From: Escherichia virus TH22 | DNA: 64,000 nt | Sequence record: MT446396.1 | Reading direction: 5' to 3' (one strand) | In this document: positions 21,606-26,470 of the stretch, one piece after another | Numbering within the stretch: position 1 is the first letter of the stretch | How the letters are laid out: every line of letters begins with the position of its first letter | Position numbers and translations under genes: made by a program | Notes under the pieces: generated by a model | What the model was told of the DNA's origin: nothing | Databases searched by the model: none | The model's input: only the letters and a program-made list of their open reading frames with translations

Positions 21606-22016
21606 ATGAAACAAATCGCTGACGAATACAGTTTTATAAAATACGCGGAGTTAGAGTTAGTCGATGGTAAAATCCCTATCCTTACTCTCGCAAACAAGAA
21701 AAATGTTATCTATGCTATTTCAGTTGATGATGAACTAGTGTATATTGGTAAGACGAACAACCTTAAGAAGCGTATCAACTATTACCGGACTGCAATTAAC
21801 CGAATCGAACAGACGAGCGATTCAAACAAATCCCGGATGATACATGAAGCTTTACAAGAAGGCAAAAAGGTGGTATTCTATGCACGACAATGTTTCAATC
21901 TGTCAATGACCAATGAACTTGGTACGATGTCAGTCGAAACGATGTCTCTGGAAGAGCCGATGTTCATAAAGCTTTTTAATCCCCCGTGGAATTACCAACA
22001 TAAGGTGAAGAAATGA
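21606..22016 (+). CDS. denA: endonuclease II
   Basis: 136 aa from ATG at 21606; close match to recalled T4 DenA (YSFIKY.ELEL, DELVYIGKT.NL.KRINYYRTAINR, FYARQCFNLSMTNELGTM, KLFNPPWN). Confidence 0.9.
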   Translation: MKQIADEYSFIKYAELELVDGKIPILTLANKKNVIYAISVDDELVYIGKTNNLKKRINYYRTAINRIEQTSDSNKSRMIHEALQEGKKVVFYARQCFNLSMTNELGTMSVETMSLEEPMFIKLFNPPWNYQHKVKK

Positions 22017-23149
22017 TTGAATTATATGATAACTTAATGAAGCTTTGCGCCGAATCTGATAAAGGTAAGTTTTTCTATACGGATTTTGTTTCTCCATTTG
22101 AAACTAAGTTCCGCATCTTTAGCTATAACTATGCTTCCTATAGTGATTGGCTCCTTGATGATGCTTTAGAGTGTCGTGGCATTATGTTTGAAATGGATGA
22201 CAATGGTCCAGTTCGCATTGCGGCCCGTCCAATGGAAAAATTCTTTAATCTGGGTGAGAACCCAATGACTATTGGTCTTAACCTTGATGAAGTTGTCCTG
22301 GTTACTGCAAAAGCTGATGGTAGTTTGGTTTCCACTTATATGGACCAGACTAATATCGCGTTTAAATCCAAAGGGTCAATCAAAAGCTCACAAGCTGCTG
22401 AAGCTCTGCAGGTGTTTAAACAACCTCATCGTGAAGCGTTCAGAGCCCGTGTGACTGAAATCACTGAAGCTGGATATACTTGCAATATGGAATATGTTGC
22501 ACCAACAAATCGCATTGTTCTTCCTTACCAGGAACGTGACTTGATTTTGTTGAACGTTCGCCATAATGAAACTGGTGAATATATTCCTTATCAGGAGCTG
22601 TTCAAAGATGCTGCACTCCGTCCATTCCTGGTTGAAGCATATGACCCGACGAGCATTGAGAATGTTCGTGATATGAAAGAGATTGAAGGTTTCGTCTATG
22701 AGCTGGCGAGTGGTCAGAAGTTCAAGATGAAAACAGAATGGTATTGTGCTCTACATCATACCAAAGACTCCATTAATAATAATGAGCGACTGTTTGAAGT
22801 TGTTGTTGCTGGCGGTGCAGATGATGTTATTGCCATGTTTACTGGTGATACTTATGCCCGTGAAAAAGTTACTGCCTTTACTGCAACACATCTGGATTAT
22901 CTGTCCAACACTCTTGGACTGTTGCTTGATGCTCAGAAACAATTGGCAGGAAAAGACCGTCGCGAGTTTGCAATTAAAGGTCAAGAGTTGTGTAAACCAT
23001 ACCCGGGATTGTTCTCCGTATTAATGAACACCTATCAACGCCCACAGGAAACTGAACAAACGATTGCTCAAATCAATAAAGTTTTCCTTAAAAATCATAA
23101 ACTTTACATTCCGTTGGACTACCAGGCGGAAGTAATCCTTCCTGAATAA
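22013..23149 (+). CDS. rnlA: RNA ligase 1
   Basis: 378 aa; match to recalled T4 Rnl1 (FFY.D.VS, YRIFSYNYASYSDWLL.DALECRGIMFEMD, KEDGSLVSTY). Confidence 0.95.
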   Translation: MIELYDNLMKLCAESDKGKFFYTDFVSPFETKFRIFSYNYASYSDWLLDDALECRGIMFEMDDNGPVRIAARPMEKFFNLGENPMTIGLNLDEVVLVTAKADGSLVSTYMDQTNIAFKSKGSIKSSQAAEALQVFKQPHREAFRARVTEITEAGYTCNMEYVAPTNRIVLPYQERDLILLNVRHNETGEYIPYQELFKDAALRPFLVEAYDPTSIENVRDMKEIEGFVYELASGQKFKMKTEWYCALHHTKDSINNNERLFEVVVAGGADDVIAMFTGDTYAREKVTAFTATHLDYLSNTLGLLLDAQKQLAGKDRREFAIKGQELCKPYPGLFSVLMNTYQRPQETEQTIAQINKVFLKNHKLYIPLDYQAEVILPE

Positions 23150-23159
23150 TAAAAAAGGG

Positions 23160-23189
23160 GTGTACAAGCCCCTCCTTTCTATACATAAT
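23160..23189 (+). promoter_or_regulatory. early promoter embedded in a stem-loop (aggggTGTACAAGcccct ... CATAAT)
   Basis: -35 GTGTAC lies in the loop of a GGGG/CCCC hairpin immediately after rnlA. Confidence 0.5.
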
Positions 23190-23220
23190 GGTTCCATCAA
23201 CTACTGATGAGGACCAAAAC

Positions 23221-23454
23221 ATGTTAAACTTAATTACAAATGACAGAGTTACACAGGCATATGGTGACAGAAATGATGGAATCTATGTCTACAAGGGAGA
23301 CCGCCGGATTGGTTTCATTACTGACCTGAAGGCCAAATTGTTAAAAGAATTGAAAGCTCAAACAAGTGATTCTGGGTTTAGAGCAAGAGCCAAAAAGAAA
23401 GATGAACGCCTGGGTGCCAACTCTTTTGGCCCCCGGGGTTATAACCGCTACTAA
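23221..23454 (+). CDS. truncated paralog of the Alc N-terminal region (77 aa)
   Basis: ITNDRVTQAYGDRNDGIYVYKGDRRIGFITDLKAKLLKELKA aligns with residues 5-48 of the downstream alc product; the track ORF start at 23188 lies inside the promoter -10. Confidence 0.5.
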   Translation: MLNLITNDRVTQAYGDRNDGIYVYKGDRRIGFITDLKAKLLKELKAQTSDSGFRARAKKKDERLGANSFGPRGYNRY

Positions 23455-23467
23455 TGAGGAAAATATT

Positions 23468-23971
23468 ATGGATATGCAACTGATTTCAAATGAAATGATT
23501 GTCAATGAATATGGTGACCGTCATGACGGAATTTATGTCTATAAAGGGACCAAGAAAATTGGTCTCATGACTGACCTGCGGAAAAAACTCGCCTCCAATA
23601 AAAAGTTGAAGGCGAAACAAAAAGAATATCGTGATAAAAAATCAGAAGAGCGGAAAGAAGCACTGCATGAATCTGTTCCTGAAATGGTTGACTTCTTAAA
23701 GAACCATTTGGTTAAATATGATGCAGAAGTGTTCATTAACCAGACCCAACCTAATGTACATATCAATGGATGTGTTTGTTATGTTGTGGTTGAACCCCTG
23801 ACACTTCAACACCGCCTGGGAATTAAACACCCAGTGTTAACCCAGGATGATATGGCGGATGAAGTTGGTAATCAGTTCCGCATTTCAGCATCTGACAGTA
23901 CAAATCACATCCTCCTGAATGGCTTATCCCAGGATGATATTGTTGAGGTAATCATCAAGTTATGCAAATAA
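23468..23971 (+). CDS. alc: Alc-like protein (host transcription unfolding/termination on dC-DNA)
   Basis: 167 aa, same size and position as T4 alc (between rnlA and the spanin genes); sequence identity not independently verified. Confidence 0.65.
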   Translation: MDMQLISNEMIVNEYGDRHDGIYVYKGTKKIGLMTDLRKKLASNKKLKAKQKEYRDKKSEERKEALHESVPEMVDFLKNHLVKYDAEVFINQTQPNVHINGCVCYVVVEPLTLQHRLGIKHPVLTQDDMADEVGNQFRISASDSTNHILLNGLSQDDIVEVIIKLCK

Positions 23972-24315
23972 GTAATCTCACTGCAGGGCTTATGCTCGCC
24001 CTGGTAGTAACTGCTGGTAGTGGTTTCTATCTAAAAGCAAAAGTAGATAATCTCAAGACGGCGGTGGCGGAAGTCACCAAAGTTGCAGAAGATAACGCGA
24101 AAAATCTGCAATCAGTAAAAGACCAGATTAATCAAATTAATCTCCTTGACCAGGAGCGTCAGGAATATGTTGAACTTCTGCAAAAGGAAAATGATAAACT
24201 TCGCGCAGATGCAAAACGTACTAAGGTTGTGGCAGCGAAGCCTAAATTAGTTGAAAAACAGATTAATCAGTCTTTTGATAAGTTCGCCCAGGACTTCCAG
24301 GAGCTCACCAAATGA
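23962..24315 (+). CDS. i-spanin (inner-membrane spanin component; T4 pseT.3 position)
   Basis: 117 aa; N-terminal transmembrane helix (LMLALVVTAGSGFYL) followed by coiled-coil-like charged sequence. Confidence 0.65.
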   Translation: MQISNLTAGLMLALVVTAGSGFYLKAKVDNLKTAVAEVTKVAEDNAKNLQSVKDQINQINLLDQERQEYVELLQKENDKLRADAKRTKVVAAKPKLVEKQINQSFDKFAQDFQELTK

Positions 24316-24602
24316 TGAAATCTATCATGGCAGTATGTTTGGCTATTGGACTCGTTTCATGCGCCCAGAAGCCCGTTGTGGAGCCCACAATCCAAGTTCA
24401 TCCCAATTGGCCTGTTGCATTGGCTGATTACAAACAGCAATGGGAAGTTAAGGTAATTGAGGGTCAAGCCTGGGTTGGTATGCCTTTTGAAGCATCGCAA
24501 GAATTCCGGATTTGGATGAATGATGTAAAAAGATATGTACATGACCAAAAAGGTATGTTATGTTATTATCGTTCTGAACTAAAAGAGGAACGTTGCAAAT
24601 GA
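24312..24602 (+). CDS. o-spanin lipoprotein (T4 pseT.2 position)
   Basis: 96 aa; signal peptide with lipobox (GLVSC), C-terminal Cys; overlaps the i-spanin stop. Confidence 0.65.
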   Translation: MMKSIMAVCLAIGLVSCAQKPVVEPTIQVHPNWPVALADYKQQWEVKVIEGQAWVGMPFEASQEFRIWMNDVKRYVHDQKGMLCYYRSELKEERCK

Positions 24603-24705
24603 TAGAGACCTGTAGCCTTGGTTGGGATATTGTTAGATTTGGTGCATTCTGTTTTTGTTTTGGAATTGCGGCCACTTTATGTGTTCAAGGTCTTTTTGGA
24701 AAGTA

Positions 24706-24735
24706 GTGTACAAACTCATGGGAGCAGAGTATAAT
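24706..24735 (+). promoter_or_regulatory. early promoter (GTGTAC, N18, TATAAT)
   Basis: Seen in sequence upstream of ORF 24764. Confidence 0.5.
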
Positions 24736-24763
24736 GCTCCTACGGATTATAAAATTTGAGGAA

Positions 24764-25248
24764 ATGACTATGACTTTACGTGATAACAGTTTTGTGGCTA
24801 ATCCTGAATACATTTCAGGTGTTAAATCCCCTGCATTACAAAAGCTCTTAAAATTAGGGTCCTGTGCAAGTACACCAATTGAAAAGAAGGCAACTTTCGA
24901 TTTTGCTTGGGCTATTGTGGACGGTATTGATGTAGTAAGACAGGTAACTTTTTATGCTCCGGGCGCTATTAAGCCTTCGCAAATTATTAATCTGGATGGA
25001 AGTAATTATATTACTATTCAGCATTGGTATCGTATGATGCGACCTGTTTGGGAATACCCAGAATTTATTGAAGAATACAATGAAAAAGAACGTATTCGTG
25101 AACTAGTAAAAAGTTTTGAATACGCGGCTAAACGCCATGGTCAAATGCAATCTGCTGCTGCACTTGGTGATGTTTCTGAAAGCGCAGCTTATGAAACTGG
25201 TAAAATCCTTAAAACTTGTCGCGAAGAACTTTATAAGGAGCTTGGTGT

Positions 25249-25252
<4 letters not shown>
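24764..25252 (+). CDS. hypothetical protein (162 aa)
   Basis: Start at ATG after GAGGA RBS; the track ORF start at 24734 lies inside the promoter -10. Confidence 0.55.

Positions 25253-26470
<1,218 letters not shown>

Follow-up and report, generated by a model that had tools for sequence, protein, structure and literature searches.

A stand-alone copy of the Alc head encoded between rnlA and alc in Escherichia virus TH22 and related phages

The Alc protein of phage T4 makes RNA polymerase terminate on deoxycytidine-containing DNA (dC-DNA), and this activity, which is known only for the T4 protein, depends on the paf site of the polymerase's beta subunit (PMC2988021, PMC2939025). Alc acts via RNA polymerase: mutations that block its function lie at R368 and P372 of the beta subunit, at the mouth of the main channel, and Alc that is bound there could inspect the DNA for cytosine modification (PMC2988021, PMC2939025). 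How Alc terminates RNA polymerase only on DNA with unmodified cytosine has been unresolved since the 1990s (PMC2988021). A search of the literature and of the PDB turned up neither a domain dissection nor a solved structure of Alc, and no PDB entry matched Alc by sequence. Here, we discuss a small gene that lies just upstream of alc in Escherichia virus TH22 (sequence record MT446396.1; the stretch that we analysed, "the window," is 64,000 nucleotides long). This gene encodes a protein of 77 amino acids that resembles the N-terminal part, or head, of Alc, and we argue that it is a maintained gene whose product may share a docking site with the Alc head.

The gene is already in the databases. 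In the GenBank record for phage SP18 (GQ981382, 2010), it is named alcb and described as "similar to N-terminal region of bacteriophage JS98 Alc," with alc itself named alca; in phage VR7, it is VR7ORF243c; and its family is PHROG 17715. All of these are the same gene as the window's, with 94.8-100% protein identity and no structural difference. In RefSeq and in several newer records, the two genes are both called "inhibitor of host transcription," a label that the short gene received from Alc by similarity. Our literature search found no paper that discusses alcb or VR7ORF243c. Because the gene is present in GenBank and in PHROGs, the novelty of our report is limited: what is new is the evidence that the gene is under selection, the motif that is conserved in its tail, the wider clade, and the mechanism of duplication.

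Kinship, selection and spread of the short gene

An earlier note on this DNA, which was made from the sequence alone, had described a colinear similarity between the product of the short open reading frame (ORF) and the N terminus of a 167-amino-acid Alc-like protein that is encoded downstream. The similarity is as claimed, and the ORF had been correctly placed and read. BLASTP aligns the two products with 31/64 identities (E = 4e-17). At the DNA level, 23201-23328 aligns to 23448-23578 with a score of 67, while 200 shuffles gave 19.2 +/- 2.3, and a repeat search found direct repeats with a spacing of 250 nucleotides (nt) and identities of 72% and 90%. The short ORF also passes the curated cutoff of the Alc family PF17527 (E = 2.4e-10, 40.8-41.1 bits as compared with a cutoff of 25), matching positions 3-62 of the profile's 177, so the idea of a free-standing copy of Alc's N-terminal module is borne out. 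The match to PHROG 17715 is end to end (E = 1.1e-52; residues 12-88 of an 88-amino-acid reading of the ORF on profile positions 1-77/77). The positions that are invariant and common to the short protein and the Alc head are I-x9-G-x3-DGI-x9-G-x3-DL.

The downstream gene is indeed a homolog of alc. It matches PF17527 along its full length (E = 6.5e-49, 166.4 bits against the same cutoff, residues 1-166 on profile positions 1-176/177) as well as phrog_1253 (E = 1.6e-73), its identity to the T4-type Alc cluster is 55%, and it lies in the T4 gene order. The window has rnlA, the short ORF, alc, pseT.3, and pseT.2, and apart from the short ORF, this is the order in T4 (rnlA-alc-pseT.3-pseT.2).

The short protein and T4 Alc are alike in that residues 1-48 of the former are homologous to the head, in the predicted fold of the head, and in the locus with its promoter-like element. 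They differ in that the short protein lacks about two-thirds of Alc (most of a 47-residue helix and the whole C-terminal alpha/beta domain) and carries an unrelated, conserved C-terminal peptide. The complete Alc architecture of head, long helix, and C-terminal alpha/beta domain takes about 165-170 amino acids, and the 77-amino-acid product does not have it. Because only the head and part of the helix appear in the alignments and in the models, the short gene should be filed as a domain-level paralog and not as an Alc ortholog.

The structure predictions give the same picture. For the window's Alc, AlphaFold2 predicts (mean predicted local distance difference test [pLDDT] score of 91.9, predicted template modeling score of 0.68) a head at residues 1-33, with a helix at 8-15 and a beta-hairpin at 23-33, then the 47-residue helix at 34-80, and then the alpha/beta domain at 87-166. 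For the short protein, it predicts the same head, with a pLDDT of about 90 for residues 11-40, followed by a helix of declining confidence, of which about 12-15 residues are conserved from Alc's helix; residues 67-77 are below 50. A Foldseek search of BFVD found no structural relative of the head outside of the Alc family. The best structural matches of Alc's C-terminal domain are to the double-stranded-DNA-binding domain of T4 MotA. As modeled, Alc's layout of head, stalk, and domain fits an "anchor plus sensor" design.

We favor the start codon at 23221 over the ATG at 23188 because GAGGA lies 7 nt upstream of it, because the PHROG profile begins there, and because relatives have an in-frame TAA in between (in six of them, including SP18, P896, and UPEC01). 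The note had also said that the short protein ends in a basic tail. A basic stretch, RARAKKKDER, is present, but this description was incomplete, as the conserved end LGANSFGPRGYNRY comes after it. In the six-frame translation of the window, there is no second occurrence of an NSFGP-like motif.

We compared 22900-24400 of the window to phage records. Identity is 100% for Escherichia phages UPEC07 and TH55 and 93-98% for about 30 further records from the genus Gaprivervirus, which is the T4-like VR7/SP18 group. The short ORF is present and unbroken in these close relatives, as the note had asked to be checked: with tblastn, there was a single unbroken match of 76-77 residues, at 94.8-100% identity, in 33/33 records that carry the locus. 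No other record among the 795 with an alc-like match has a full-length short copy, and IMG/VR returned only VR20, VR25, and VR26.

To quantify selection, we used 15 aligned genomes (the window and 14 further Gaprivervirus) and the Nei-Gojobori ratio of nonsynonymous to synonymous rates (dN/dS). The ratio is 0.115 for the short gene, 0.114 for alc, 0.076 for rnlA, 0.090 for pseT.3, and 0.160 for pseT.2, with the caveat that the 15 genomes are closely related and recombining. Codons 50-77, in the tail, have 11 variable nucleotide sites, all of them synonymous, and no amino acid changes; for example, GGC CCC CGG GGT and GGT CCT AGA GGT both encode Gly-Pro-Arg-Gly. Phages of the VR7 clade have a 3-nt deletion by which the TGA of alc's Shine-Dalgarno (SD) sequence (TGAGGA) becomes the stop codon in place of TAA, and the product is still 77 amino acids long. 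We have little doubt that the short ORF is a genuine gene that is under selection. The earlier note had allowed that it might be a duplication remnant, and the selection data speak against this: it is a maintained protein-coding gene.

The family is also found beyond the cultured genus. Two uncultured sister lineages have the short gene between rnlA and alc: L018, with a short protein of 78 amino acids (P0026) and an Alc of 167 amino acids that is 77% identical to the window's, and L019/L020, with a short protein of 77 amino acids and an Alc that is 76% identical. More distant relatives are without the short gene (L021-L023, Alc 63% identical to the window's, and L024/L025, 60%). The short proteins of the three lineages are 48-64% identical to each other, and synonymous sites are saturated. 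The window, L018, and L019/L020 have in common the reading frame, the length of 77-78 amino acids, and the motif GF...R.G.NSFGP...N[KR][YF] at the C terminus; the linker between the GF and the end motif is basic or proline rich, depending on the lineage. The combination of the order rnlA-short-alc, this length, and the end motif R.G.NSFGP...N[KR][YF] is found in the window, the 14 further Gaprivervirus, L018, L019, and L020. On the basis of the sequences, then, the short family predates the cultured genus.

The divergent short proteins lie on either side of the PF17527 cutoff (23.2 bits for L018, just under it, and 29.5 bits for L019, just over it), and in both, the Pfam ALC match stops at residue 46-48. 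Because the match ends there, we take the Alc-derived part to be about 48 residues and the remainder to be specific to the family. As for remote relatives of the head, a word-indexed search gave 2 clusters, and a profile search against 1.84 billion representative proteins gave 7 matches, one of which was P0026. All 7 were Alc or short copies, with nothing from outside the Alc family.

Duplication and expression

The leaders of the two genes are similar to each other (CTACTGATGAGGA / CTACTAATGAGGA): 23190-23218 (29 nt) aligns to 23437-23463 (27 nt) with z = 5.2. The latter segment consists of the last codons and the stop of the short ORF, followed by alc's SD sequence. The window's alc leader also aligns to the 5' leader of alc in the single-copy relative L021 (z = 6.1), and AATGAGGAAAATATT of the window's alc leader is identical in L024. 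Because the two leaders are homologous and because the end of the ORF aligns with the alc leaders of single-copy relatives, we infer a head-to-tail duplication of the leader and the 5' part of alc. We propose that this was a partial tandem duplication of about 250 base pairs (bp), in which the 5' leader of alc was copied together with roughly 50-63 codons from the start of the gene, and that it took place in the ancestor that Gaprivervirus shares with at least two uncultured sister lineages. Translation of the truncated upstream copy would then continue into the repeated leader as far as a stop codon. It seems likely to us that the short gene arose in this way, by tandem duplication in situ.

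Within the tail, only the last 28 nt or so (the leader) are demonstrably homologous to duplicated sequence. The tail's last six codons and its stop would be duplicated 5' untranslated leader of alc, i.e., noncoding sequence that has become the conserved end of a peptide. The NSFGP part was not traced to the intergenic region. We considered whether the tail might be the duplicated promoter and intergenic region in translated form, as GTGCCA...TATAAC resembles GTGTAC...CATAAT, and rejected this: the resemblance is by eye only, and semi-global alignments of the whole intergenic region to the tail were not above shuffles in the three lineages, and the same held against T4, L021, and L024.

A similar event can be seen in a Tequatrovirus. 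In vB_EcoM-G28 (L003, MG867727, 2433-3134), the ORF G28_00229 is likewise an Alc-head ORF that results from a tandem duplication between rnlA and alc. The duplication is 351 bp, with copies that are 100% identical, and it runs from the 3' end of rnlA across the intergenic region and through alc codons 1-48. It yields an Alc-head ORF of 63 amino acids, annotated as "N-terminal part of inhibitor of host transcription," and an ORF of 41 amino acids from the tail of rnlA. It differs from the window's short gene in that the duplicated unit includes the promoter, the tail of the 63-amino-acid ORF is out-of-frame rnlA sequence, and the duplication is recent, is found in a single genome, and shows no sign of selection. 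It could be an independent and very recent event, or it could be an artefact of assembly. The birth of a gene by partial tandem duplication may be visible at this locus at two stages, one "fresh" (G28) and the other "established."

The short copy had been credited with its own early promoter and a stem-loop. The stem-loop is present, just after rnlA (Table 1). It is specific to Gaprivervirus, being invariant in the 15 genomes and absent from T4, L018, and L019; because it is invariant, covariation is uninformative. It may be a weak terminator. There is also a promoter-like element upstream of the short gene, but it does not appear to be the copy's own. In an alignment of the region after rnlA from six lineages (the window, T4, L018, L019, L021, and L024), GTxTAC, a -10 element at a constant distance, TGAGG, and the ATG are in register. 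Because the putative promoter is in register with the rnlA-alc region of T4 and of single-copy relatives, we consider it to be alc's ancestral promoter, which the upstream copy has captured, and not a new one.

Only 13 nt separate the stop codon of the short gene from the start of alc. As this leaves no room for a promoter, we infer that the two genes are co-transcribed, and judging from the sequence, they are very probably on one early transcript. The translation-initiation regions of the two genes have no significant predicted RNA structure that would couple the translation of alc to that of the short ORF. We also considered a programmed frameshift that would fuse the two ORFs and dismissed it, as alc has an SD sequence and an ATG of its own, and these are the same as in single-copy relatives.

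A possible function and its rivals

We propose that Alc docks on a partner by means of its head and that this partner is most plausibly the host's RNA polymerase, near the paf site of the beta subunit. The short protein would then be an anchor without a sensor: it would occupy the same dock and would lack the effector domain. It might tune, time, or antagonise Alc-dependent termination, or it might bring its own tail to the polymerase. Taken as a whole, this account (a selected duplicate gene, docking by the head, and modulation of Alc) is our best explanation, and we would give it a probability of roughly 0.55. Its parts are not equally secure: the analysis shows paralogy, selection, architecture, and probable co-transcription, and what we propose beyond these is the head's role as an anchor, the polymerase as its partner, and the direction of the effect. 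The short protein could well share the binding partner of the Alc head, and we would put this at slightly under even odds. That the net effect is a modulation of Alc is a reading that we offer tentatively and with some doubt. It seems unlikely that the short protein has termination activity.

An analogy can be drawn to truncated-paralog regulators ("microproteins") and to phage pairs such as holin/antiholin, in which the full-length protein is modulated by a shortened version of itself: one module is kept, the effector domain is lost, and the two proteins are co-expressed. It is an analogy of logic only. The short protein has the makings of a truncated-paralog competitor in that it keeps one module of its parent and lacks the effector part. 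Unlike a simple dominant-negative fragment, it has an extra conserved motif, which such a fragment would not need.

According to two published surveys, Gaprivervirus lack the known hydroxymethylcytosine pathway, with its dCMP hydroxymethylase (gene 42), yet they keep alc, denA, denB, and the dCTPase (PMC8056088, PMC12115623). Where we looked at the syntenic locus in VR7 (HM563683, 20000-32000, our L027), the genes are uvsX, ORF049c, 42.1, imm, and 43, with no gene 42 or beta-gt. T4 (L026) has beta-gt and gene 42 at the position where VR7 has only ORF049c and 42.1, which agrees with the published loss. A phage that has lost the hydroxymethylcytosine synthase must have another means of shielding its DNA from Alc. 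The short gene occurs only in this clade and coincides with the loss of gene 42, which is a correlation only; it could help these phages to live with their own Alc. A stronger version strikes us as quite unlikely: here, the short protein would be a natural factor that counters or tunes Alc, sitting at the polymerase dock without the DNA-sensing domain and thereby limiting or timing the action of Alc in a lineage without gene 42.

If the short protein does dock at the paf site, then the head of Alc would be its anchor, or polymerase-binding module, and the C-terminal domain would be the sensor. A stand-alone Alc head that has been kept by selection would be a ready-made reagent for studying the mechanism of Alc. 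If none of the functional readings hold, then this is one more small conserved phage gene that was already in the databases.

Several observations weigh against our account. The Alc head could instead be an element for oligomerisation or for contacting DNA or RNA. Between lineages, the short protein changes about 2.5-3 times faster than Alc does (dN of 0.36-0.61 as compared with 0.16-0.20, a comparison that is limited to dN because synonymous sites are saturated). Its head is no nearer to its own Alc (49%) than to the Alc of other lineages or of T4 (49-53%), and a tree of the head module (47 columns) recovers the short family as a clade in just 3/60 bootstraps, which leaves the history of the heads unresolved. 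Because the head identities and the head tree are uninformative, the case for a single in-situ origin is made by the position and size of the gene, the homology of the leaders, and the motif in the tail. The promoter-like site matches 9/12 of the sigma-70 consensus, and such sites are no commoner here than in shuffled sequence. Finally, one metagenomic contig (ERZ27275844 contig k141_9694, 1501-1728, our L028) has a 35-nt deletion that corresponds to 23385-23419 of the window. The tail is frameshifted, the ORF then runs over the start of alc, and the contig is otherwise near-identical to the window. This deletion may be an assembly error; if it is real, then the tail of the short protein is dispensable.

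The Alc head varies more than the rest of the protein, which bears on one of the alternatives. Across the 15 Gaprivervirus genomes, 12/50 residues of the head are variable (dS of 0.38), as compared with 3/117 in the rest (dS of 0.09), and between lineages, identity is 65-68% in the head and 81-84% in the rest. Within these genomes, the head is dimorphic (23468-23617 vs. 23618-23968), with the forms MDMQLISNEMIVNEY...GTKKIGLM and MNMQLISNDMIVDVY...GSKNVGFL. Given this dimorphism and the near-invariance of the remainder, either recombination has had a breakpoint within alc or the head has been under different selection. The alleles of the Alc head are unlinked to those of the short gene across the genomes: UPEC01 combines an SP18-type short allele with a window-type Alc head.

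The main rival to our account, which we consider to be rather unlikely, is that the short protein binds to Alc itself as a regulatory subunit. In this case, the head would self-associate, and the short protein would act in mixed complexes as a co-factor or as a dominant negative and would not compete for the polymerase site. Adjacent and probably co-transcribed genes are typical of partners, and the rapid evolution of the head, both within the genus and between lineages, is compatible with co-evolving interfaces. Yet if the two heads bound each other, it is odd that the alleles of the short gene do not follow the two classes of Alc head, as in UPEC01; nothing points to oligomerisation of Alc; and the short copy keeps only the 12-15 or so conserved residues of the long helix. 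Another alternative concerns the origin of the gene: a fragment of a foreign alc might have been inserted upstream of alc by recombination between different T4-like phages. This would explain why the short head is equally far from its own and from foreign Alc heads, and also why the short head of L018 (YGTHSDGIYIWKG) looks like the head of the Alc P0029 (YGTHSDGIFVWNG), with which the tree groups it. We find it improbable, however, because the leader and SD sequence before the two copies are homologous, because the end of the ORF aligns with the alc leader of a single-copy relative, and because G28 shows a duplication at the same site; a later exchange of heads by recombination would account for L018.

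The remaining two alternatives do without a function for the protein, and the selection data bear on both. The short ORF might act in cis, with translation through the region coupling to alc or setting its level. Its stop codon does abut or overlap alc's SD sequence, given the short gap in the window, and in VR7, L018, and L019, the stop is the TGA of TGAGGA. But a purely cis-acting role would not preserve amino acids, while 11/11 substitutions in the tail are synonymous and NSFGP has outlived the saturation of synonymous sites. Also, the initiation region of alc is not predicted to be sequestered in a structure, and single-copy relatives translate alc from the same SD sequence with no ORF upstream. 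So we view a cis-acting ORF as highly improbable. That the short gene is a decaying remnant with no function is effectively refuted by the selection data. It does evolve faster than alc between lineages, the contig L028 has its frameshifting deletion, and G28 shows that truncated copies arise spontaneously; nevertheless, 77-78 codons are intact in 33 records and in three deep lineages, dN/dS is low in Gaprivervirus, the tail is invariant across 11 synonymous changes, and the end motif is retained at about 50% identity.

Features of the locus and smaller observations

The features that we have discussed are listed with the neighbouring genes in Table 1. Between 22000 and 25000, there was no match to Rfam, and PADLOC gave no match.

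Table 1. Positions of genes, signals, and duplicated segments in the window
Feature	Position	Strand	Remarks
rnlA (RNA ligase 1)	22013..23149	+	PF09511 + PF20819; phrog_562, E = 2.3e-138; upstream neighbour that fixes the synteny
Stem-loop AGGGGT-GTACAA-GCCCCT	23156..23173	+	6 bp, -10.2 kcal/mol, z = -2.2; just after rnlA stop; overlaps the -35-like hexamer
Promoter-like site	23160..23189	+	-35 GTGTAC 23160-65 (or TGTACA 23161-66), 18-nt spacer, -10 CATAAT 23184-89, A-tract upstream
Upstream duplication copy	23190..23328	+	Leader, SD, and codons 1-36 of short gene; matches 23437/23448-23578
SD sequence GAGGA of short gene	23209..23213	+	7 nt before ATG; kept in 15 genomes; TGAGG invariant across six-lineage alignment
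Short Alc-head paralog gene	23221..23454	+	77 amino acids + TAA; = alcb / VR7ORF243c / phrog_17715
Head module, residues 1-48	23221..23364	+	Alc-homologous: helix 7-14, beta-hairpin 22-32, beginning of stalk helix
Family-specific tail, residues 49-77	23365..23451	+	GF, basic linker RARAKKKDER, then conserved end LGANSFGPRGYNRY
Downstream duplication copy	23437..23578	+	Last codons and stop of short gene, alc SD, alc codons 1-37; from DNA alignments
SD sequence GAGGA of alc	23456..23460	+	7 nt before ATG; adjoins short gene's stop codon
alc	23468..23971	+	167 amino acids; homolog of T4 host-transcription inhibitor; PF17527 + phrog_1253
pseT.3 / pseT.2 spanin pair	23962..24602	+	phrog_739 + phrog_812; downstream neighbours that fix the synteny

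Some records annotate these genes differently. In UPEC07 (L001, 3503-4072), UPEC01, and DCP80 (P0003/P0004), alc is annotated as 188-189 amino acids, with a start inside the short gene and an overlap of 53 nt. We prefer the 167-amino-acid start at 23468 because it is supported by the SD sequence, by T4, and by the single-copy relatives. In PQ765507 (phage 212), the product names are off by one gene, hence the short ORF is labelled "RNA ligase." An ortholog of the short gene in record PQ341120 is labelled as a PRC-barrel protein, which we could not reproduce: NCBIfam gave no match, and even at E <= 10, the only matches in Pfam/NCBIfam were to ALC.

The short gene of L018 (1046-1282) has an unusual head. 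This head, KKYGTHSDGIYIWKGEKRIGF, has the unusual T-H-S and W substitutions of the Alc P0029 (NKYGTHSDGIFVWNGTKKVGF), which the neighbouring Alc (FGDRHDGIYVYKQ) lacks. A swap of heads by recombination is possible. The head tree places the L018 short head beside P0029, which is from an unrelated lineage, and this placement may reflect such a later recombination.

Downstream of these genes, the region from pseT.2 to pseT (24600-25570 in the window) is a variable cassette region within Gaprivervirus. The ORFs in this cassette encode 35, 172, and 106 amino acids in the window and in UPEC07, 160 and 99 in VR7, 118 in SP18, and 112 in P479. In the same comparison, DCP80 departs from the sequence of the genus directly after alc.

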